From: Corallococcus exiguus
GTDB taxonomy: Bacteria; Myxococcota; Myxococcia; Myxococcales; Myxococcaceae
Direction: 5' to 3' (one strand)
NCBI RefSeq assembly: GCF_013248915.1
Contig: NZ_JABNNE010000050.1
DNA: 41,125 bases
In this document: positions 7,832 to 41,125 of the stretch, in pieces
Layout: the number at the start of each line of letters is the position of its first letter
How positions within the stretch are numbered: position 1 is the first letter of the stretch
The notes under the pieces: model-generated
Told to the model about the DNA's origin: nothing
The model's database searches: none
What the model saw: the letters and a program-made list of their open reading frames with translations, nothing else
Position numbers and translations under genes: made by a program

Positions 7832-9556
7832 CTACTTGTTGATGCGCACCATGGCCACGTCGTAGTGGCGCTCGGTCACGTAGCCGTTCGCGGCCTTGCC
7901 GGGGCGGTACATGTTCCCGGTCTTGTCATCCACGTAGAAGCGGTTGTTCGGGTTCGTGTCCTTGCCCGTGCTGGCGTTCTTCGTGCCCGGGTCGTGGAAC
8001 GTGTAGTAGGTGCGGCCCTTGTCGTCGACGCCGCGGCCCGTGATGGTCACGAAGTGGTCCGTGAGGCCGTCCGCGTTGTAGCTCGCGTCCTTGTGGCTCA
8101 CGCCCACGACCACCGGCTTGCCGGCCTCCAGCTGCTTGTCGATGTAGCTGCGCCCCTCGGCGGCCTTCTTCGAGTCCACGTTGAGCGCGCCGACGCCGTT
8201 CTCGCTCTTGCCCACCTGGATGCGGCGGTCCGGGCCCAGCACGGTCGCGCCGGAGTCACGCGCCATCGCCGTCGCGGCCTTGAAGCACGCCGTGTCGCTC
8301 GCGGTGTAGCCGTGGCCGTTCTCGAACTGGCTGTAGTACGGCACCTTCACGTGCACCGCCGGCTTGTCCTTGGACGGGGCCACCTGCTCCGTGTTCGCGG
8401 GAGCCGCCTCCGTGGTGGGCTTGGAGGTGTTCGTGCCCTGCGTCGTGGGCTTGCCTTCCGTGGTGCCCGGCTTCGAGCCGTTGTTCACGGACGGGGGAAC
8501 CACGCCCGTGTTGGTGTTGGCCGGCTTCGTCGTGGTGCCCGACTTCTCCTGCTTCAGCATCGCGAGGGCGTCCTTCGCCTCCGACTTGAAGCGGTTGGCC
8601 ACGCCCTTCTGCACGTCCTTGGAGCTGCCGGAGAAGTGCACCAGGGTGCCGCTGGCGTTGGTGCGGCCGCGCTCGGCGTAGATGTCCTTGATGAGCTGCT
8701 CGTCGCTCACCTTCGCGGGGTCGCGCCCGTTGAGCGCCTTCTTGAAGATGTCATCCGCCTTGCCCGGGCCGTGCTGCACGGAGGTGGACCAGGCCACGTC
8801 CCGCAGCGCCGCGGAGCGCTTGTCCAGGTCGATGCCCGTCGCCTTCTTGATGTTGGCGGCGCCCGCGTCGTAGTGCGTGGTCTTGATGTAGTCGTGCTGC
8901 GCCTTGTCGAAGCCCTTCGGGTCCTTCGCCGCCAGCTGCTTCCACGCGGCGGAGAACTCCGCGGTGCCCGGCTTGCTGCCCGACAGCGCCTTGTGGAAGT
9001 CCGGGTTCGTCTTCTTCAGCGAGTTGACGAACGACTGCGCGGACCCGTTCGCGGAGGCGAACTGGTAGGAGCCGTAGGACACGCCGCCCTTGTCACCCTT
9101 GCCCGTGGACACGGTGCCGGGGCCGCGCGCCTCGTACTTGCGGCTCAGCCCGCCCAGCTCCCCGTTGGTCGCGCTGCTGGAGTTCGTGTTCGCGGCGGGC
9201 GTGGTCGCCTTCGCGCCGTCCGTGGACTGCGTGAAGCTGTCGCCCGACGTCTTCGTCCCCGCGCTCGACTTGTTGGTGCCCTTCGTGTCGAAGCCGTCCT
9301 GCACCTTCAGCGTCTGGCCAGCCAGGATCTTGTTCGGATCCTTGATGTTGTTCGCCTTGGCCAGCGCGTCAACGGTCGTGTTGTAGCGCTTCGCGAGGCC
9401 GGAAAGCGTGTCGCCCGAATTGACGCGGATGTTGGAGACGGTCACGGAGAAGACCCCTCTATGTCTGGCCGCGACCAAAGGCGCCGCGGACGTGCTTGGA
9501 TTGCCCGGATTATCGAAAGGCAATGTGATCAGTTTCGCATTCCCAGTCACAATCAT
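7832..9556 (-). CDS. LysM domain + central unknown domain + C-terminal C39-like (papain-fold) cysteine peptidase; putative cell-wall-targeting hydrolase
   Basis: LysM near N-terminus ([48 protein letters not shown]); C-terminal VPYYSQ...[12 protein letters not shown]...[10 protein letters not shown] matches Peptidase_C39-like YYxQ/Cys/His pattern; Thr/Ser/Asn/Pro-rich linkers; no obvious signal peptide. Confidence 0.7.
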
Positions 9557-17192: not shown

Positions 17193-20100
17193 CTACCGGC
17201 GCGCCTTGCGAGCCGGCTTGCCCCGAGTGGTCTTCTTCGCCGCGGCCTTCTTCGCGGCGGTCTTCTTCCCCGCCGCCTTCTTCGCCGAAGCCTTCTTCGC
17301 AGGAGCCTTCTTCACCGCCGCCTTCTTCGCGGCCGTCTTCTTGCCCGCTGCCTTCTTCGAGGAAGCCTTATTCGCAGGGGCCTTCTTCGCGGCGGACTTC
17401 TTGCTCGCCGCCTTCTTCGCGGAGGCCTTCTTCGCAGCGGCCTTCTTCACCGCCGCCTTCTTCGCGGAGGCCTTCTTCGCAGGGGCCTTCTTCACCGCCG
17501 CCTTCTTCGCGGAGGCCTTCTTCGTCGGAGCCTTCTTCACCGGCTTCGCCGAACCCTCCGGAGCCTCGCGGGCGTCGCCGCCCTCCTTGGCCCGGTCGAA
17601 CTCGCGCATCGCGTCGTCCACGAGGCCCATGCTCATGTACGCGACGCCCAGGTCGTGGTGGTCCGCCGGGGACAGCCCTTCCTTGGTGCCCTCGCGCAGC
17701 TTGTTGAGGGCCTCCTCCACCACCGGATCCGCGGCCTGGGGCGCCTGCGAAGCCTCTTCGGCTTCAATCTCGCCCTTCAGCTCCTGGCCCAGGTTCACCG
17801 CATCGTCCTTCGGTGCCTGCGGCTCGGTGGCCACCTTCACCTGGGCGCTCTCGGGCGCGGGGGACTCGGACGCTTCAGGGGCTTCGGACTCGGTGCTGCC
17901 CGGCAACGGCGACGGCGTCTCGGACATGGGGGGCTCCGGGGCGATGCGCTGGAGGTGATCCTGCAGCTTGACCGTGCGCTCCTGGAGCTCCGCCACCCGG
18001 GCCTTGTCCTTCTCCACCACGTCCGGCGGAGCACGGGCCACGAAGTTCGGGTTGTCCAGCTTGCGCTGCAAACCGGTGAGTTCCTGCTCGGAGCGGACGA
18101 TCTCCTTCTTCAGGCGGTCGCGCTCCGCGTCCAGGTCCACCAGGCCCGCCAGGGGCACGTAGATTTCCAGGTTGCCGCTCACGAACGCCGCCGCCTGCGG
18201 AGGCTTGGCGCCCGGGGGGCCCACCACCACCTCGGACAGGCCCGCGAGCGGCATCAGGTACGCGCGCCAACGCTCCAACAGCTCGCGCGTCGTCGCGTCC
18301 GGGCTCTGCACCACCGCCTTCACCTTGGCGGACGGCGGCAGGTTGCTCTCGCCGCGCAGCGTGCGCAGGCCCTCGATGGCCGCGATGACCGGCGCCATCT
18401 CGCCTTCCGCGGCCGCGTCCACCCACGCCGTCTCCGGCGCCGGGTACGCCGCGATGCAGATGCTCTCCGTGGGCCGGGACATCGGCAGCTTCTGCCAGAT
18501 CTCCTCGGTGATGAACGGCATGAACGGGTGCATCAGCCGCAGGATGCGGTCCAGGCACGTCACCAGCACCGCGCGCGTGGTGTCCTTGGCCTCCGCGTCG
18601 TCGCCGTACAGCGAGCCCTTCGCCAGCTCGATGTACCAGTCGCAGAACTCCGCCCACAGGAACTGGTACAGCGTGGATGCCGCCTCCGCGAAGCCGAACG
18701 CCTCCAGCGACGCGCGCGTCTCCTCCGTGGCCTTCTGCAGGCGGGAGAGGATCCACCGGTCCGCCAGCGTCAGCTTGCGGCCCTCGAGCGGCGTCTTGTC
18801 CAGGCTGAAGTCGCCCATGTTCATCAGGGCGAACCGGCTGGCGTTCCACAGCTTGTTGCAGAACGCCTTGTAGCCACCCAGGCGGTCCATCGACAGCTTG
18901 ATGTCACGGCCCTGCTGCGTGAGCGACGCCAGCGTGAAGCGCAGCGCGTCCGCGCCGTGCGCCGGCATGCCCTGCGGGAAGCGGTTGCGCAAGGACGGCT
19001 GCAGCGACTCCGCCTTCGCGCCGAGGATGACGTCCAGGGGATCGATGACGTTCCCCTTCGTCTTGGACATCTTCTCGCCCTTCTCGTCGCGCACCATCGC
19101 GTGCAGGTACACGGTGCGGAAGGGCACGTCGTTCATGAAGTGCAGGCCCATCATCATCATCCGGGCGACCCAGAAGAAGATGATGTCGTGGCCCGTCTCC
19201 ATCACGGACGTCGGGTAGAAGGTCTGGAGGTCCGCCGTCTGCTTCGGCCAGCCCAGCGTGGAGAACGGCCACAGCGCGGACGAGAACCAGGTGTCCAGCA
19301 CGTCCGGATCCTGCGTCAGCTCCTTGCCGCCGCACTTCGGGCAGGACTCCGGCGCCGTGCGAGACACGATGACGTCCGCCGTGTCCTTGGAGCGCTCCTC
19401 CGCCGGGGTGCACGCCGCGCAGTACCACGCGGGGATCTGGTGGCCCCACCACAGCTGGCGGCTCACGCACCAGTCGTGGATGTTGTTCATCCAGTGGAAG
19501 TACGTGTTCGTCCACGACTCGGGGACGAACTTCGTGCGGCCCTCCTCCACGGCCTGGATGGCCGGCTTCGCCAGCGGTTCAATCTTGATGAACCACTGCG
19601 GCGACAGGCGCGGCTCCACCACCGTGGTGCAGCGCTGGCAGGTGCCCACGTTCAGCTTGTGCGGCTCCTCCTTCTCCAGCAGGCCCAGCTCCGTCAGGTC
19701 CGCCAGCACCTGCTTGCGCGCCTCCCGGCTCTCCAGGCCCGCGTACTTGCCGGTGTCCTTCGTCATCCGCGCCGCTTCGTCCAGGATGGACAGCATCGGC
19801 AGCTTGTGGCGCAGGCCCGTCTGGTAGTCGTTGAAGTCGTGCGCGGGCGTGACCTTCACCACGCCGGTGCCGAACTCCATGTTCACCAGCTCGCCGTCCG
19901 CGATGACCGGAATCTCACGGTCGGTGAGCGGCAGCGCCACGCTCTTGCCGATGAGGTCCTGGTAGCGCGGATCCTCCGGGTGCACGGCGACGGCCGTGTC
20001 GCCCAGCAGCGTCTCCGGGCGCGTCGTCGCCACGGTGAGGAAGCGCTCCGTGCCCTTCACCGGGTAGCGGATGTGCCAGAGCGAGCCGTTCTTCTCCTCG

Positions 20101-20687
20101 TGCTCCACTTCCAGGTCGGAGAGGGCCGTGCGGCAGGACGGGCACCAGTTGATCAGCTTCTGGGCCCGGTACATCAGGCCCTCTTCGTACAGCCGGACGA
20201 ACACCTCGCGCACCGCGGCCGAGGACTGCTCGTCCATGGTGAAGCGCTCGCGGCTCCAGTCCAGGGACGCGCCCAGGTAGCGGTGCTGCTCACCGATGCG
20301 CGCGCCGAACTTGCCCTTCCACGTCCAGACGCGCTCGAGGAACGCCTCGCGGCCCAGGTCGTGGCGGCTCTTGCCCTCCCTCTTCTTGAGCTCCTTCTCC
20401 ACCACCATCTGCGTGGCGATGCCCGCGTGGTCCGTGCCCGGCAGCCAGAGCGCGTTGAAGCCGCTCATCCGCTTCCAGCGCGTGAGGATGTCCTGGATGG
20501 TCGCGGTGAGCGCGTGGCCGATGTGCAGGCTGCCCGTCACGTTGGGCGGCGGCAGCACGATGCTGAACGGCGGCTTGGAGGAAGGGGCTTCGGCGCGGAA
20601 GTAGTCGCGCTCCAGCCAGTGGTTGTACCACCGCGCCTCCACTTCGGAGGGCTCGTAGGCCTTGGACAGTTCAGTCGTGTCAGTCAT
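17193..20687 (-). CDS. valS: valyl-tRNA synthetase with ~280-aa C-terminal extension (acidic S/P/E linker, TPR-like helix pair, Lys/Ala-rich histone-H1-like tail)
   Basis: HIGH motif [15 protein letters not shown]; KMSKS motif KMSKTKGN; canonical C-terminal coiled coil, then the extension ending in [22 protein letters not shown] repeats. Confidence 0.9.
17200..17560 (-). repeat. low-complexity codon repeat (gccttcttcgc units on plus strand) encoding the (A/S/P)KKA tail of ValRS
   Basis: Seen directly as ~12-nt periodicity. Confidence 0.55.
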
Positions 20688-33812: not shown

Positions 33813-33911
33813 GGTAGGGCCTCCGGACCTGGTGGCCGGCCCGGTCTTCAAAACCGGTGAGGGGCTGCGAGAGCAGTCCCTGGCGAGTTCGATTCCCGTG
33901 CCCTACCGCCA
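33813..33911 (+). tRNA. selC: tRNA with UCA anticodon and long variable arm; probable tRNA-Sec (selC-like)
   Basis: 8-bp acceptor stem GGTAGGGC/GCCCTACC + G73 + CCA; anticodon arm CCGGT-cTTCAaa-ACCGG (U33, UCA, A37); 8-bp variable-arm stem with GAGA loop; T-arm GCGAG-TTCGATT-CCCGT (one A.C mismatch); 8/5 architecture. Confidence 0.5.
33847..33911 (+). repeat. attL-like: 3' 65 nt of the tRNA (anticodon loop to CCA), direct repeat partner at 38137..38201
   Basis: 62/65 identity with the downstream copy, same orientation. Confidence 0.65.
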
Positions 33912-33965
33912 CCCACTCCTCTGCGAACCTGGTGGTTGAAAAAGCTGTGCGCGACGTGACGACCC

Positions 33966-34481
33966 TCAGAATGCTGCGACACCGAGACTCATCCCCGCAA
34001 TCGTGTTGATCTTGGTACGCCAAGCCTCTGGCGTCATGAGGTAGGGCTCAAGCATTCTGATCAACTCCTGGCTTGGGCGATTCGTCGTATAGCCAGGCTT
34101 TCCTGTTCGCCCCCCCGTCTTCCATGAATCCGTTTTCGTCCACTCCATCGCCTCCGCGACGCCAACGGACTCTGCGTACGTCAGCGCATACGCGCGAGTA
34201 TCGGAGGGGCGATCGAGGTCCCATACATAGACGAGGAGAAGCCGTCGAAACTTCTCGTACTTCTTGTGGACGCTGAACGACCTATCCGAGTGTGCCTTCA
34301 GTTGGATGGGACAGGCGATGAAGTCTCCCACCTGCTGATCCAGGTCGCTGTAGACGATCAGGTCGATTCCGCGGTCTCGCTCTGGGCGTGCCACTTCCAA
34401 ACCGGCACGGAGGAGTTCTGTTACGATCCAGTTTCGACCAACAAGCTCCACCATCTGAGAGTCCATACCAGCTTGTACCAC
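33966..34481 (-). CDS. hypothetical protein with PD-(D/E)xK-like motif (restriction-endonuclease fold candidate)
   Basis: ELLRAGLEV...RGIDLIVY...IQLKAHS pattern resembling the Hjc/PD-(D/E)xK core; AT-rich upstream region. Confidence 0.4.
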   Translation of the reverse strand: MVQAGMDSQMVELVGRNWIVTELLRAGLEVARPERDRGIDLIVYSDLDQQVGDFIACPIQLKAHSDRSFSVHKKYEKFRRLLLVYVWDLDRPSDTRAYALTYAESVGVAEAMEWTKTDSWKTGGRTGKPGYTTNRPSQELIRMLEPYLMTPEAWRTKINTIAGMSLGVAAF

Positions 34482-34717
34482 TCGACCAACGTGGCCTCGT
34501 GACGAAGAGGCGCTATGCCGTCAGGCGGACTACGCGGAGTGGCAAACTCTTGCGCTTGCCGCCGCACCCACACGGCCGAGCCCTATGGTCGCTTTCAATA
34601 CCTATTGGGTTTATTGATATTAGACTTTTCACCGCGAGCGCCACAGGCCCTGTCCCACGCAGCCGAGGCCCCACCAGTGTACCGCACCGGATTGTTGAGA
34701 CACCAGGTTGGTCGTAA

Positions 34718-35611
34718 TCAGGCCGCTTGCTTCTGCATCAGTTCCCGCCGGGCCTGACTCGGCGAGAGGAAGTGGTGACGCTCCAGCAACCAGTGCTCGT
34801 TGTACCGGTGAGCCCACTCCAGCAGCGCCAGCCGGAGTTCCTCCACGGTGGCGAAGGTGCGCACCCAGAGCAGTTGCTCCTTGAGGGTACGGATGAAGCG
34901 CTCGGCACAGCCGTTGCCCTCGGGACTGCGGACGAAGGAGGGACTGGACACGGCCCCCAGGAAGCGCAGCTCGTTCTGGAAGGCGTCGGAAGTGTACTGG
35001 CTGCCGTTGTCGTGGCGGATGGACAGCCCCGCGGCCACGCCCCGGCCGTACGCCCCGAAGCGAGCCTTGACGCCCTGGCGGATGGGCTCGAGGGCCTCGA
35101 AACGGGTGCCGACCTTGGCCGCGTGGATGCCGACGCACTCGGCGGTGCCGTGGTCGATGGCGATGAAGACGGTGGCCTGGCCCTCCAGCTTCGTCACGGT
35201 GCAGGTGGCGTCGGTGCCCCACATGACGTCGGGCTTGTCGGTGGTAATCGTGCCGTCATGGTTGCGCGGTCCCAGCACCCGGCGGGCCCTGCCCGGTGCC
35301 AGCAGCCCTGCCTCGCGCATCCGCCGCAGGCAGCGGGCCTTCGACGTGCGTACGCCCTGAGCGCGAAGCCGGGCCCATACCTTGCGGTGCCCCTCGCCCA
35401 GAAACGGGGAGGCGGCCAGCACGCCGCGGATGGCCTCCAGCAGCGCCTCGTCCGTCAGCGCCGTCTTCGGGCCTCGCCGGGCTGTCGGAGAGAGCGCTGC
35501 CTGCCGGCGGGCACGGTGCCGGTACACCGTGGCGCGAGGCACTCGCCAGGTGGCCGTCACGAGCACCAGTCCGTACGGCTTGCCGCTGGAAGGCGAGAGA
35601 CTGGCGCTCAT
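34718..35611 (-). CDS. IS3-family transposase OrfB (rve integrase core, DDE)
   Basis: VMWGTDATCT...FIAIDHGTAECVG...IRHDNGSQYTS...NGCAERFIRTLKEQ (D, D, E catalytic residues in rve spacing); the track's 445-aa ORF is a frame read-through over orfA. Confidence 0.75.
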   Translation of the reverse strand: MSASLSPSSGKPYGLVLVTATWRVPRATVYRHRARRQAALSPTARRGPKTALTDEALLEAIRGVLAASPFLGEGHRKVWARLRAQGVRTSKARCLRRMREAGLLAPGRARRVLGPRNHDGTITTDKPDVMWGTDATCTVTKLEGQATVFIAIDHGTAECVGIHAAKVGTRFEALEPIRQGVKARFGAYGRGVAAGLSIRHDNGSQYTSDAFQNELRFLGAVSSPSFVRSPEGNGCAERFIRTLKEQLLWVRTFATVEELRLALLEWAHRYNEHWLLERHHFLSPSQARRELMQKQAA

Positions 35612-35952
35612 CCTCTCGACTTCCTCCAGGGAAAACCCGGCGCGTTGCCCTCCAGCAGCCGGGCCTTCTGCGCCAGCAACTCGTTCTTCATCATCAGCTC
35701 GCCCACCATGGCCTTGAGCCGCAGCACCTCGTCGTCCGCTGCTTCCGGCTCGCGGCTCTTGAGGTTCGCCTCGGCCCCAGCCAGGAACTTCTCCCGCCAC
35801 TCGCTCAGCACCGCTGCCGTGACGCCCAACTCTCGGGAGAGGGCGTCGAGCTCCTCGCCCTTGAGCAGACGGAGCACGGCCTCCTTCTTCCGCTTCGCCG
35901 AGAACCGACCGCGCTCTGCCGTCCTGTCCTGCTTCTGCTTCTTCACATCCAC
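35608..35952 (-). CDS. IS3-family transposase OrfA (HTH DNA-binding)
   Basis: MDVKKQKQDRTAERGRFSAKRKKEAVLRLLKGEELDALSRELGVTAAVLSEWREKF + leucine-zipper-like C-terminus. Confidence 0.75.
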   Translation of the reverse strand: MDVKKQKQDRTAERGRFSAKRKKEAVLRLLKGEELDALSRELGVTAAVLSEWREKFLAGAEANLKSREPEAADDEVLRLKAMVGELMMKNELLAQKARLLEGNAPGFPWRKSRG

Positions 35953-36241
35953 CTCGCGAGGGGGAGGCTATCCCCCAGAAAGGTGTCTCAGGAATCCCTG
36001 GGGCGGAGGAAGGGCGACGTGGCGTACACCTCGTCCGGTGACCGGTAAGCTGCACGAAGTGTCGGCCGCCGCGCGCTGAGATCCGAGCGGACGTGCAGTT
36101 CCCGTAGGCACGCCGTCAGCCCCACGCACTCGCCCCAGCGATGGGTCAGCCTGGAGCACCTGTCAGCTCTATCTGGTATTGCACGACCTCGTGACGACGT
36201 GGCCTTCCGGCGAACGGGGGCCAGCGCCAGGAGGCCTCCGC

Positions 36242-37594
36242 ATGCTGCCACGATGGTCGATTGCGCTGCTGATCGTGATGCTGGCCGGATGCAGCAGCAC
36301 TACGAAGTCCGTGCGCCTACACACGGGCCACGGCGACCCCATCGTCCTCGCCCCACGCAGCGGCGATGCCGCGCCGGTGGAGTTGGACGAAGACGACTTT
36401 GTTGAAGCCGTAGCAGCGCTCGCTCAGCGCGTGCGGCCGTCCACGCGTCCCCAGGAAACAGCCCGGGGGTTGTTCGAGGTGGATCCACGCAGCGGTTCGT
36501 ACCTGTACGAGCCGCGCAGCCACCGTGTCATCCCGCTGGGACCGGGCGAACACCTGGAGGGCGAACGCCCCTCAACAGAGGTGGAGTTGACGCGCGCATA
36601 CCTTCGCTGGTGCGAGCGAACGAGCAATCCCGGCGATTGCCTGCGCCTCCTGATGGAGAGCCCCACTGTCACCGGGGATGGCCGTTACGCCCTGGCCATG
36701 GCCTTGGCCCAAGGCGTCGTGCGGGACGAGATGATGGACGCCTTCAAGGAGATGGCTGATCCCCAGGCCATGATGGCTGCGGTTCTTTGGACGTGGACCA
36801 CGTACTGCATCTTGCTCGCGGTGCCCGAGCCTTTCTCGAAGGGCGTGGCCGCGGTGATGACCGCCTCCCTCATTGCCTACGTGGGGGTCGATACGTTCTG
36901 GAGCCTCATCTTGGGCTTCAAGCAGCTGGTGGAGGAGGTGGAGCTGGCCACCACGTTTGACGAACTCCGCGAGGCGGGTGAGCGCTACGGCAAGGTCATG
37001 GGCCGCAACGCGGCGCGCGCGTTCGCCATGTTGGCCACGGCCGCCCTTGGGAACACGGCGGCGGGGCTGGGGGCGAAGGTGCCCATGCTGCCCGGCGCCG
37101 CGCAGGCGGCGGTCCAGGCTGAAGCGCAAATGGGCATCAGGCTCGCGGCGGTCGCGGACGTGGGAACGGTGGCCGTGAGCGCCGAGACCGTCACCATCGC
37201 CCTCGCGCCCGGCGCGGTGGCCATGGGGGCCAAAGCCACGGGCGGCAGCGCCTCCGCCAAGGCGCGCCCCTCGGGCTACAGGGCCTGGGGCTCGTTCAGT
37301 GGTTTCAAGAAGGCCATGGGCCCGGCGGGCAAGAACAAGGAGTGGCACCACATCGTCGAGCAAACCACGGGCAACGTGAAGCGCTTCGGCCCCCAGGCCC
37401 TCCACAACACCGAGAACCTCATCCCACTGGACAAGAGCCTGCACAGCGACGTCAGCGCGTTCTTTTCGTCGATTCGACGCGATATCACCGGCTCGCCATT
37501 GACCGTACGGCAATGGTTGAGCACGCAGTCCTACGAGGCCCAACGTGACTTCGGGCTTCTGGCCATCGAGAACGTCGGAAAGGGGCTCTGGTGA
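36242..37594 (+). CDS. lipoprotein polymorphic toxin with C-terminal WHH-type HNH/EndoVII nuclease domain (SitA-like)
   Basis: Lipobox LIVMLAGCSS after signal peptide; strong RBS GGAGG; Ala/Gly-rich pre-toxin linker; C-terminal KNKEWHHIVEQ...NTENLIPLDKSLHSD (WHH His-Asn-His HNH core). Confidence 0.7.
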   Translation: MLPRWSIALLIVMLAGCSSTTKSVRLHTGHGDPIVLAPRSGDAAPVELDEDDFVEAVAALAQRVRPSTRPQETARGLFEVDPRSGSYLYEPRSHRVIPLGPGEHLEGERPSTEVELTRAYLRWCERTSNPGDCLRLLMESPTVTGDGRYALAMALAQGVVRDEMMDAFKEMADPQAMMAAVLWTWTTYCILLAVPEPFSKGVAAVMTASLIAYVGVDTFWSLILGFKQLVEEVELATTFDELREAGERYGKVMGRNAARAFAMLATAALGNTAAGLGAKVPMLPGAAQAAVQAEAQMGIRLAAVADVGTVAVSAETVTIALAPGAVAMGAKATGGSASAKARPSGYRAWGSFSGFKKAMGPAGKNKEWHHIVEQTTGNVKRFGPQALHNTENLIPLDKSLHSDVSAFFSSIRRDITGSPLTVRQWLSTQSYEAQRDFGLLAIENVGKGLW

Positions 37595-37944
37595 TGAAGT
37601 TGCAGGACCTTGTCGAGCAGTTCGTCGAGAACGTAGTCGCGCAGAACGAGGCCATCTTCCGGGGAGACGCCAAGACGGGAAACAAGCACGCCAGGAAGTA
37701 CGGTGCCGCCGTCGATAAGCTCCTGGCCCACGGCAATGCCGGACGTGACGCTCTCGCCGTACTGCTCAAGCATGAGCGCATGGACGTGCGCGTGATGGCT
37801 GCCGCGCATCTGCTCCGCTATCGGACGGCCGAAGCCAAAGCGGTCCTGGAGGAAGCGGCCAAGGGGCAGGGGCTGGTCCCGTTCGGAGCGCAGCAGGCAT
37901 TGAAACGTTGGGAAGAAGGAACCTGGGCGCTCGATCCTGAGTAG
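37591..37944 (+). CDS. putative cognate immunity protein (all-helical, 116-117 aa)
   Basis: Start (GTG 37591 or ATG 37594 with RBS AAAGGGG) overlaps the toxin stop (GTGATG); small cytoplasmic helical protein, the typical size and placement of an immunity gene. Confidence 0.5.
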   Translation: MMKLQDLVEQFVENVVAQNEAIFRGDAKTGNKHARKYGAAVDKLLAHGNAGRDALAVLLKHERMDVRVMAAAHLLRYRTAEAKAVLEEAAKGQGLVPFGAQQALKRWEEGTWALDPE

Positions 37945-38136
37945 TTCTGATCGTGGCTGAGGAGGCCATGGCGCGCGCGGGCATCTCCGGCGCGCAGGTC
38001 ACAGCTTTCACCGTCCAGGTGCAGCCAATGGACGGACGCGGGTGAAGCGCCATGGACTCGCCACCCACCCCACTCCAGAGGGAAACCGGCCGCCCCTCCA
38101 GCCCTCCGAGCACCTCGCGGCTCGGGGTGGCGGGGA

Positions 38137-38201
38137 TTCAAAACCGGTGAGGGACTGCGAGAGCAGTCCCTGGTGAGTTCGATTCCCGTTCCCTACCGCC
38201 A
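38137..38201 (+). repeat. attR-like partial tRNA 3'-half copy (direct repeat of 33847..33911)
   Basis: TTCAAAACCGGTGAGGGACTGCGAGAGCAGTCCCTGGTGAGTTCGATTCCCGTTCCCTACCGCCA; 5' half of the tRNA is absent. Confidence 0.65.
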
Positions 38202-39657: not shown

Positions 39658-41125
39658 ATGGACGTGATGCGAGCCAGCAGGGCCCTGCTGCTGGGACTGG
39701 TCTGTGTTGCAGCAGGCTGTAGCAGCAAGCCGCCAGAAGAGAAAACGCTGACCCACAGCGCTTCGCCGTTGGTGGTGGAGGGGTGGACCGAGACCGCACC
39801 CATGGCGGAGGCTCGGAAATACCACGCGGGTGTCGTGCTGCCTTCCGGCAAGGTGCTGGTGACGGGCGGATACAACGCCAGTGGTTATCTCTCCTCCTCC
39901 ACGCTCTTCGACCCCGCGACCGGTGCGTGGACAGCGGCCGCGCCCATGCCGGAGGCCCGACAGAGTCACGCCCTGACGCTGCTGCCTTCGGGCAAGGTGC
40001 TGGTCGTCGGCGGAGAGAATGCGACGGGCCGCCTGGCTTCCGCGGCGGTGTATTCCCCGGACACCAATACCTGGGCCCCCGCGGGAAGCTTCGCCACGGG
40101 CGTGGCTCGGGCGGCCATGACGACGACGCTGCTGCCTTCAGGCAAGGTGCTGGTGGCCGGCGGTGGAAACGGTACGGGGGCGTCCTTCCGGGTGGATGTG
40201 TATGACCCGGCCTCCGGAAGCTGGAGTGTCGGACCGAACCTGGGCGCGCCGCGTCGCAACCACACGGCGACACTGCTGCCTTCGGGCCAGGTGCTGGTGG
40301 CGGGCGGCGTCGAGAGCGGGAGCCTGGCGACTGCCGAGGTGTACACCCCCTCGAGCAATACCTGGTCGGCGACGGGGAGCCTCGCGACAGCGCGCTACGA
40401 CCATACGGAGACGCTGCTGCCTTCGGGCAAGGTGCTGGTGGTGGGTGGCCGTAACAGCAGCGGACTGTTGGCGACAGCGGAGGAGTATGACCCGAGCACC
40501 GGGCAGTGGAGTGCGACGGGCGCGCTGGGCGCGGCCAGGATGCTGCACACCGCCACCCTGCTGAGCACCGGGAAGGTGCTGGTGGCCGGCGGAATGTTTG
40601 GCAGCGCCGCGACGGCTGCCCTGGCGAACACGGAACTGTACGACCCTGTCACCCGGCAGTGGAGCGCGGCGACGCCGATGGCTGGTGCGCGGTATTCGCA
40701 TGTGGCGGTGTCGCTGGGGACGCATGCCAAGGTGTTGGTGGTGGGCGGCATCGGCGCCAACGCCGCGAGCCAGAAGACGGCGGAGGTGTATGGGTATGAC
40801 GCGTGCGCCGGAGTGACGTGCAACAACTCCCCAGGGTCCTGCCATGAGGCGGCGGGAACATGCAGCAATGGGGTGTGCAGCTACGCGCCGAAGGCGACCG
40901 GGGCCACCTGTGACGACGGCAATGCGTGCACCGGGGCGGACGTGTGCAACGGCGCGGGCGTGTGCGCGGGGAGTGCCACCCAGTGCGGCAGTCCTCCGGG
41001 GCAGTGCTACGAGACGGCGGGAACGTGCAGCGATGGGACGTGCTCCTACGCGTACAAGGCGACGGGCGCCGCGTGTGATGATGGGGATGCGTGTACGGTG
41101 GACGAAACGTGCAACGGGGCGGGCG
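39658..41125 (+). CDS. Kelch-repeat beta-propeller lipoprotein with C-terminal Cys-rich (CxDGxxCT) repeats; 3'-truncated by window end
   Basis: Signal/lipobox LVCVAAGCSS; at least 7 Kelch-type repeats (PR..H.ATLLPSGKVLVAGG); tandem Cys-rich modules CDDGNACTGADVCNGAGVC; not in ORF track because no stop is reached. Confidence 0.7.
   Translation, partial: MDVMRASRALLLGLVCVAAGCSSKPPEEKTLTHSASPLVVEGWTETAPMAEARKYHAGVVLPSGKVLVTGGYNASGYLSSSTLFDPATGAWTAAAPMPEARQSHALTLLPSGKVLVVGGENATGRLASAAVYSPDTNTWAPAGSFATGVARAAMTTTLLPSGKVLVAGGGNGTGASFRVDVYDPASGSWSVGPNLGAPRRNHTATLLPSGQVLVAGGVESGSLATAEVYTPSSNTWSATGSLATARYDHTETLLPSGKVLVVGGRNSSGLLATAEEYDPSTGQWSATGALGAARMLHTATLLSTGKVLVAGGMFGSAATAALANTELYDPVTRQWSAATPMAGARYSHVAVSLGTHAKVLVVGGIGANAASQKTAEVYGYDACAGVTCNNSPGSCHEAAGTCSNGVCSYAPKATGATCDDGNACTGADVCNGAGVCAGSATQCGSPPGQCYETAGTCSDGTCSYAYKATGAACDDGDACTVDETCNGAG

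Follow-up and report, generated by a model that had tools for sequence, protein, structure and literature searches.

A candidate sitA5-sitI5 toxin-immunity operon with a DUF2019 partner gene in a tRNA-SeC islet of Corallococcus exiguus

What does a gene for a 450-amino-acid (aa) lipoprotein with a nuclease-like tail do beside a transfer RNA (tRNA) gene, and what is the small gene that begins within its stop codon? The question is raised by positions 36242-37944 of a 41,125-nucleotide (nt) stretch of Corallococcus exiguus DNA (contig NZ_JABNNE010000050.1; the whole stretch is referred to below as the window). A first-pass annotation, made from the DNA letters, had proposed a SitA/SitI-type lipoprotein toxin on mobile DNA, with an overlapping immunity gene and a tail from the WHH clade of HNH nucleases. 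SitA toxins are outer-membrane lipoproteins that are passed from cell to cell by TraAB-dependent outer membrane exchange (PMC8546572). We consider it highly probable that the pair is the sitA5-sitI5 toxin-immunity operon of C. exiguus and acts by the SitA5-type mechanism. As such it is already known, being a named member of the described SitA5/SitI family. The assignment to SitA-type toxins on mobile DNA thus held, and the WHH label for the tail did not.

A lipoprotein of the SitA5 family

The first gene of the pair, sitA5 (36242-37594, plus strand), encodes a 450-aa lipoprotein polymorphic toxin. Its family membership follows from the NCBIfam model SitA5_escort (NF050093), which matches aa 9-274 (36266-37063) over the complete profile, positions 1-262 of 262, with 385.8 bits against a cut-off of 160 (E 1e-115). 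The comparison with SitA N-terminal families that the first-pass annotation had recommended therefore returned a clear answer. A RefSeq record with 100% identity to the product (WP_172813180.1, Corallococcus exiguus) bears the name “SitA5 family polymorphic toxin”. SitA5/SitI5 were reportedly included by Vassallo and Wall in 2019 among the myxobacterial outer-membrane-exchange toxins. Each SitA family is defined by its N-terminal escort domain, and the C-terminal nuclease domains are modular (PMC8546572). The SitA5 family has been shown experimentally to consist of outer-membrane-exchange toxins, and one tested allele has an HNH (PF13391) tail (PMC8546572). This allele, from M. fulvus HW-1, is the closest known counterpart of ours by its described domains, and a possible ortholog.

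Relatives of the protein are numerous. A protein search returned more than 1000 homologs of SitA5, and when one genome per species was scanned, 286 loci proved to encode a relative. The 80 loci retained from these 286 are all myxobacterial (Myxococcus, Corallococcus, Pyxidicoccus, Archangium, Cystobacter, Hyalangium, Vitiosangium, and Citreicoccus), and several of the genomes have multiple paralogs. Judged by these homologs and loci together with a third-position GC content of 0.85 over its codons, sitA is not a chance open reading frame (ORF). Its 450 codons are read without interruption, and none of the conserved residues is missing. An AGGAGG motif at 36229-36234 is spaced 7 nt from the ATG; a longer reading from a TTG at 36179 is possible.

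The N-terminal sequence, MLPRWSIALLIVMLAGC, reads as a type II signal peptide (36242-36292) that ends in the lipobox LAGC at Cys17. The product length, signal peptide and lipobox agree with the first-pass annotation, and Cys17 proved invariant among the 44 full-length homologs. The residues that follow the cysteine are SSTTKS, with Ser at both +2 and +7. In Myxococcus lipoproteins, the signals for retention in the inner membrane are Lys at +2 and Ala at +7 (PMC5562445). By this rule SitA5 has no inner-membrane retention signal, as it has neither residue, and the mature protein would probably reside in the outer membrane.

Between the escort domain and the C-terminal end lies an Ala/Gly-rich linker or pre-toxin segment (aa 275-345; 37064-37276), delimited by its composition and by a predicted local distance difference test score (pLDDT) below 50. 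Such a region had been expected from the sequence, and over aa 255-345 alanine and glycine make up 45% of the residues against 23% for the complete protein. The AlphaFold model of SitA5, built from a 57-sequence alignment, is poor for residues 1-345 as a whole.

The escort domain is predicted to contain two helices of strong hydrophobicity (aa 176-194 and 198-226; 36767-36919; Kyte-Doolittle above 1.5), a helix pair that is unusual for an outer-membrane lipoprotein and that AlphaFold predicts with low confidence. Residues 176-226 could form a helical hairpin that inserts into the inner membrane of the target cell. Several truncated sitA copies elsewhere start just before or inside this hydrophobic segment.

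A different view of the family was considered and set aside. A first search with the tail returned only proteins of 100-300 aa, as if all relatives were truncated at the 5' end. The genome scan and a search with the full-length query show mostly intact lipoproteins of about 450 aa, and the idea was rejected for this reason. The short matches are genuinely disrupted copies mixed with a bias in how candidates were collected.

The toxin module and its DUF2019 partner

The last 105 residues of SitA5 (aa 346-450; 37277-37591) form a separate module, delimited by the AlphaFold model, profile search and conservation, and modelled with pLDDT values of 88-96. With a profile built from the last ~104 aa we searched 1.84 billion cluster representatives, of which 1848 (50% clustering, E<=1e-3) carry the module. 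In every case it forms the very C-terminal end of a host protein of 73-2544 aa, and several of the long hosts are RHS-repeat and SpvB/TcdB-type (Tc-toxin-type) proteins. Because it occupies the C-terminal end across such varied proteins, the tail is a polymorphic-toxin end module.

The module contains the three motifs picked out by the first-pass annotation: EWHHIVEQ at aa 367-374, NTENLIPLD at aa 389-397 and SLHSD at aa 399-403. Their key residues, which with R423 characterize the module as HNH-like, are W368-H369-H370, N389, N392 and H401. Counted over 96 diverse relatives, H369, N392 and R423 are conserved in all, H370 in 95 and W368 in 93. Position 401 is His in 86 of the 96 and Asn in the other 10, and alternation of His and Asn at the last position is classical for HNH/HNN nucleases. 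In the predicted model EWHHI forms a strand (366-370), two short helices follow (376-387), and a second strand, LIPLD (393-397), is succeeded by the helix with H401 (398-408). The conserved His, Asn and His/Asn are thus arranged on a predicted strand-strand-helix, in the manner of a beta-beta-alpha-metal motif. Residue conservation and predicted secondary structure together indicate that the tail is very probably an HNH-type nuclease.

The second gene, sitI (37594-37944, plus strand), encodes a 116-aa protein of the DUF2019 family that we assign as the immunity protein from Pfam (PF09450), its homologs, AlphaFold and Foldseek comparisons, and synteny. The sitA stop codon TGA (37592-37594) shares its last base with the sitI ATG, a 1-nt overlap within GTGATG. 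The first-pass annotation had described a small helical ORF at exactly this overlap, and the AlphaFold model (pLDDT 90.7) indeed has six helices. SitI matches DUF2019 with 28.0 bits (cut-off 23.3). More than 830 of its homologs are named DUF2019, and nearly all of those listed carry PF09450. The best Foldseek match of the model is 2I9C (template modelling scores 0.89/0.85, E 9e-5), an uncharacterised structural-genomics protein of R. palustris (RPA1889) with the same six-helix fold.

The linkage of the two genes is conserved. Of 83 related loci, 79 have an intact sitI homolog that starts at most 15 nt from where the SitA match ends; in the majority of these the homolog overlaps the sitA stop codon, as it does in the window, or directly adjoins it. 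A second, diverged sitI stands in tandem at nine loci. The same association occurs outside the SitA family: downstream of an 830-aa RHS protein that ends in this tail module, a 115-aa protein is encoded with 48% identity to SitI (hhalign probability 99.8%). In the metagenomic RHS locus L084 (5498-5842, protein P0380) the tail and a DUF2019-type immunity gene are found together, with more RHS fragments downstream. This RHS locus shows that the toxin-immunity module pair moves between delivery systems. The linkage survives a complete change of delivery domain, and this is strong comparative evidence that SitI is the cognate immunity factor for the SitA5 tail. A further argument, from co-evolution of toxin and immunity protein, was dropped: across loci, identities of the tail and SitI are correlated (Spearman 0.43), but those of the escort domain and SitI more so (0.51), so that the tail-SitI correlation is not specific.

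Taken as a SitA5-type system, the pair would act as follows. SitA5 would be made with its type II signal peptide, lipidated on Cys17 and sorted to the outer membrane. Where cells fuse their outer membranes through compatible TraA/TraB receptors, the lipoprotein would pass into the neighbour, as has been shown in M. xanthus for other alleles of the family. There the escort domain (aa ~18-274) and the Ala/Gly-rich linker may carry the ~105-aa tail across the periplasm and the inner membrane. For tested SitA5 alleles this entry step depends on ExbB1 and MXAN_0057; these alleles kill in a family-specific manner, and resistance follows the escort domain and maps to the same two proteins (PMC8546572). 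In the cytoplasm the tail would work as a metal-dependent nuclease of the HNH type (beta-beta-alpha-metal). From conservation and predicted secondary structure, H369/H370 may supply the general base, and N392 and H401 may have structural or metal-binding roles. SitI, presumably coupled to sitA in translation through its overlapping start, would stay in the producer cytoplasm, bind the toxin and block it, so that clonemates are immune and non-kin are killed.

The closest comparison is the SitA5/SitI5 family itself (PMC8546572), with which the locus shares a lipobox lipoprotein, a full-length escort match, an HNH-like tail, an immunity gene directly downstream, several paralogs per genome and a site adjoining mobile DNA; we found no defining difference. 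SitA toxins with TraA-dependent delivery are likewise outer-membrane lipoproteins with a C-terminal nuclease and a downstream sitI, as proposed here, although the locus in the window is without sitB and its tail without a Pfam WHH match. Rhs/YD-repeat polymorphic toxins share the ~100-aa toxin module, have an immunity protein of the DUF2019 type (48% identity) and differ in delivery, which relies on an RHS shell and secretion-system export instead of a lipoprotein escort domain and membrane exchange. The proposed action also recalls the colicin E7/E9 DNases and Im7/Im9. In both cases N-terminal translocation domains hijack, or would hijack, envelope proteins and carry an HNH nuclease to the cytoplasm, and a small helical immunity protein encoded directly downstream neutralises the nuclease in the producer. 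There is, however, no detectable sequence relation; Im7 and Im9 have the four-helix Im fold, unlike the six-helix DUF2019 (2I9C-like) SitI, and colicins are secreted, whereas SitA5 would by analogy be lipid-anchored and passed by cell contact.

Several observations weigh against this account. The traA and traB genes are not in the 41-kb window, and this SitA5 allele is known from its sequence and predicted models alone. No sigma-70-like promoter was found between sitA and an IS3-family insertion sequence that ends 231 bp upstream. No Pfam nuclease model reaches its threshold for the tail of SitA5, of the 44 full-length homologs or of the 96 diverse relatives, and Pfam WHH (PF14414) has no match in these sets even at E<=1. 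No solved structure was matched by sequence when the Protein Data Bank (PDB) was searched with the protein and two profiles.

For the tail, the HMMER comparison proposed by the first-pass annotation, against Tox-WHH (PF14414) and AHH, gave no match, and neither did other toxin-HNH models of Pfam. Membership of the WHH family was therefore rejected, as the tail shares with it the tripeptide W368-H369-H370 and matches no model; the HNH part of that annotation stands by conservation and predicted structure. An HNH domain is recognisable, if narrowly, from conserved residues and predicted secondary structure, with no significant database match. The best label is an HNH-like module left unclassified by Pfam. 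A match in the PDB to an encapsulin MMP-I (E 0.004) was taken as chance, since it is marginal and covers only the helix after the motif.

The tail could also be toxic without being an HNH-type DNase, as an RNase or an enzyme of another fold with His/Asn motifs, which we regard as unlikely. To the missing Pfam nuclease and structure matches this explanation can add that fold searches returned no HNH match, that the two short helices at 376-387 make the insert between the strands longer than in textbook HNH hairpins, and that two residues outside the HNH core, R423 and W425, equal the His residues in conservation. Yet the invariant residues (HH, N, N, and H/N at the start of the helix after the strand) are ordered and spaced in keeping with the beta-beta-alpha-metal motif, and the change from His to Asn at position 401 is that of HNH/HNN families. 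Moreover, the sole recurrent Pfam signal is an HNH family aligned to the core. This family, HNH_2 (PF13391), scores below its threshold of 21 in SitA5 (11.9 bits with the full protein and 14.8 with the tail alone) and appears in 13 of the 44 full-length homologs and 11 of the 96 relatives, with a best E of 0.0015. One SitA5 allele has been classed under the same family (PMC8546572). On balance we keep the assignment to HNH-type nucleases.

Delivery could in principle be independent of TraAB, with outer membrane vesicles, for instance, carrying the toxin to prey or competitors. This would suit the lack of traAB in the window, and the use of the same toxin-immunity module by RHS-type systems means that the module is not tied to one route. 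We nonetheless find it very improbable, because the escort domain defines the family and SitA5 is a full-length match to it. SitA families share TraAB-dependent delivery (PMC8546572); killing by SitA1-3 is TraA-dependent, and SitA1-3 orthologs occur only in species with traAB (PMC5562445). The relatives with an escort domain, 80 retained of 286 loci, are likewise confined to myxobacterial genera. Outer membrane exchange through TraAB thus remains the preferred route, and dependence on it would apply to SitA5 here as to the tested alleles.

The insertion sequence and the tRNA-SeC islet

The DNA upstream of sitA bears on whether the operon is active. The insertion sequence (IS) noted there in the first-pass annotation is an IS3-family element at ~34677-36010 (minus strand), recognised through Pfam, NCBIfam and homology to other copies, and its measured end is 231 bp from the sitA ATG. 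It consists of orfA (35608-35952, minus strand), which matches HTH_Tnp_1, and orfB (34718-~35620, minus strand), which matches rve; rve_3 and HTH_21 are also matched. The NCBIfam model transpos_IS3 (E 1e-38) spans both ORFs; orfB alone scores 133.6 bits, under a cut-off of 160 that is set for the whole protein. The limits were taken from homology to copies in loci L017, L001 and L035; three loci outside the window have copies or fragments of 84-91% identity. The element has imperfect inverted repeats (34689-34704 and 35982-35997), and no convincing target-site duplication was found.

This insertion invites the explanation that the pair is a silent or decaying relic, in which the IS3 cut sitA from its promoter and the locus is kept as immunity against toxin-making neighbours. 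The closeness of the element and the absence of a sigma-70 consensus promoter between it and sitA would suit a relic, and so would the state of related loci. In about 11 of them (L001, L002/L049, L003, L046, L051, L052, L054, L055, L056, L075) a nonsense codon, frameshift or 5' truncation has inactivated sitA, and sitI is intact. Examples are a change of TGG to TAG at W184 in Stigmatella hybrida and a frameshift in Cystobacter fuscus, and further copies are truncated at aa 189, at contig starts. From these loci, loss of the toxin with retention of immunity is a common fate of the cassette, and the pattern fits selection that keeps immunity after the toxin is lost.

For the window itself we judge a silent relic quite unlikely. 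The sitA frame is whole, at 450 codons with all conserved residues kept, and the promoter scan was limited to one consensus type, sigma-70. An alignment of 9 upstream regions identified a conserved block at 36150-36195 (plus strand), a putative promoter or regulatory region, within homology between cassettes that begins ~150 nt before the sitA ATG (about 36088-36092). The conserved block, and the ~150-nt shared region with it, lies downstream of the IS3 and is undisturbed, so that the proximal control region is probably intact. An operon that can still be expressed in this strain is therefore the reading we prefer.

The pair and the IS3 lie together in a tRNA-bounded islet, as first noted from the sequence. 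Its left boundary is the tRNA-SeC gene (selC; 33813-33911, plus strand), identified by ARAGORN (anticodon TCA) and by Rfam RF01852 (70.5 bits against a gathering threshold of 47). The 3' part of this gene forms the left copy of a 65-nt direct repeat (33847-33911), and the right copy, a partial tRNA-SeC at 38137-38201, marks the other boundary. The two copies are 95% identical at a spacing of 4290 nt, and the right one is not a complete tRNA according to ARAGORN and Rfam. The same tRNA-SeC fragment is found 3' of sitI in Corallococcus sp. AB045 (L001) and in the C. exiguus locus L087.

The islet proper (33912-38136) contains a 171-aa ORF, the IS3, sitA and sitI. The ORF (33966-34481, minus strand; 57% GC) belongs to a low-GC part, 33912-34677, where GC is 58% and that of the flanks 69-70%. 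Neither Pfam nor NCBIfam assigns the ORF to a family, and PADLOC gave a weak partial match to PDC-M02A, a candidate phage-defence family (E 9e-5). Searches of the islet with Pfam and NCBIfam found no tyrosine or serine integrase, and the sole recombinase is the IS3 transposase. With its intact tRNA-SeC, the repeated 3' part opposite, DNA of foreign composition in between and content that varies among strains, the islet resembles selC genomic islands; it differs from them in being only 4.3 kb long and in having no integrase.

An exact-match search with the flanking methyltransferase, intended to locate empty sites, returned no record; close SitA5 homologs allowed us to compare the site between strains. 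Two other C. exiguus strains (L087/L088) share the flanks, with 98% identity up to the tRNA-SeC end and ~90% in the acyltransferase gene on the far side of the islet. Their tRNA and its partial copy enclose GmrSD, an IS66 remnant, sitAI5 and an Imm11 gene, and more genes precede the acyltransferase. C. coralloides (L086) has three tandem sitAI5 cassettes, two intact and one internally deleted, and the last sitI stop is 5 nt before a 45-nt tRNA-SeC fragment. A tRNA-SeC fragment also lies ~55 nt upstream of the frameshifted copy in Cystobacter fuscus (L002), and in Archangium sp. (L059) a 2.3-kb segment with sitAI alone is bracketed by 48-nt tRNA-Met repeats. No integrase is present inside any of these segments, that of the window included.

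We conclude that the pair is a discrete cassette of ~1.9 kb lodged in a variable islet at the tRNA-SeC gene. More tentatively, sitAI5 may be a self-contained unit, made up of the ~150-nt upstream block, sitA and sitI, that has no integrase of its own and is shuffled into tRNA genes and multiplied there. What suggests such mobility is that cassettes recur beside tRNA fragments in the window, Archangium and C. coralloides and that their neighbours differ among C. exiguus strains. An integrase encoded elsewhere could mobilise the unit in trans, or the tRNA fragment and the conserved upstream block could serve for recombination. Alternatively, larger islands may simply have decayed, and we hold a dedicated mechanism to be doubtful.

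Surroundings and implications

The rest of the window contains several genes of other kinds. Major Vault Protein repeats (Vault, Vault_2, Vault_3, Vault_4) and the MVP shoulder (E 9e-45) mark a 758-aa protein (13328-15601, minus strand) as a bacterial homolog of the vault shell protein of eukaryotes. The valyl-tRNA synthetase (17196-20687, minus strand; 1164 aa) has a C-terminal extension of ~115 aa that resembles histone H1-like HC2 (Pfam HC2, E 7.5e-11). A 574-aa protein (7835-9556, minus strand) combines LysM with a VgrG3-like C-terminal domain (E 3.6e-53) and is a probable peptidoglycan-targeting effector or enzyme, judging from these domains. At 39658-41125 (plus strand), and running off the window end, another lipoprotein (lipobox AAGC) is encoded in which a Kelch beta-propeller precedes Cys-rich repeats of the pattern CxxGxCSYAxKAxGxxCDDGxAC; its homolog in another strain is 1133 aa long.

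Myxobacterial genomes have 25-80 sitAI loci each, which serve as self-identity barcodes for kin discrimination (PMC8546572). To this repertoire the pair in the window adds one more allele, and as a discovery it has little weight. It is of more use to annotation, through three by-products. A full-text literature search found no paper in which DUF2019 and immunity occur together. As the toxin tail and DUF2019 are linked in SitA5 and in RHS settings alike, DUF2019, a family named for its “unknown function”, becomes readable as the immunity partner of a large family of HNH-like toxins, and this toxin family, with its 1848 representatives at 50% clustering, is itself without a Pfam model. For Corallococcus, the tRNA-SeC site emerges as a variable hotspot where sitAI5 cassettes accumulate and decay. 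If a dedicated cassette mechanism did exist, it would be a new way for kin-discrimination loci to spread.

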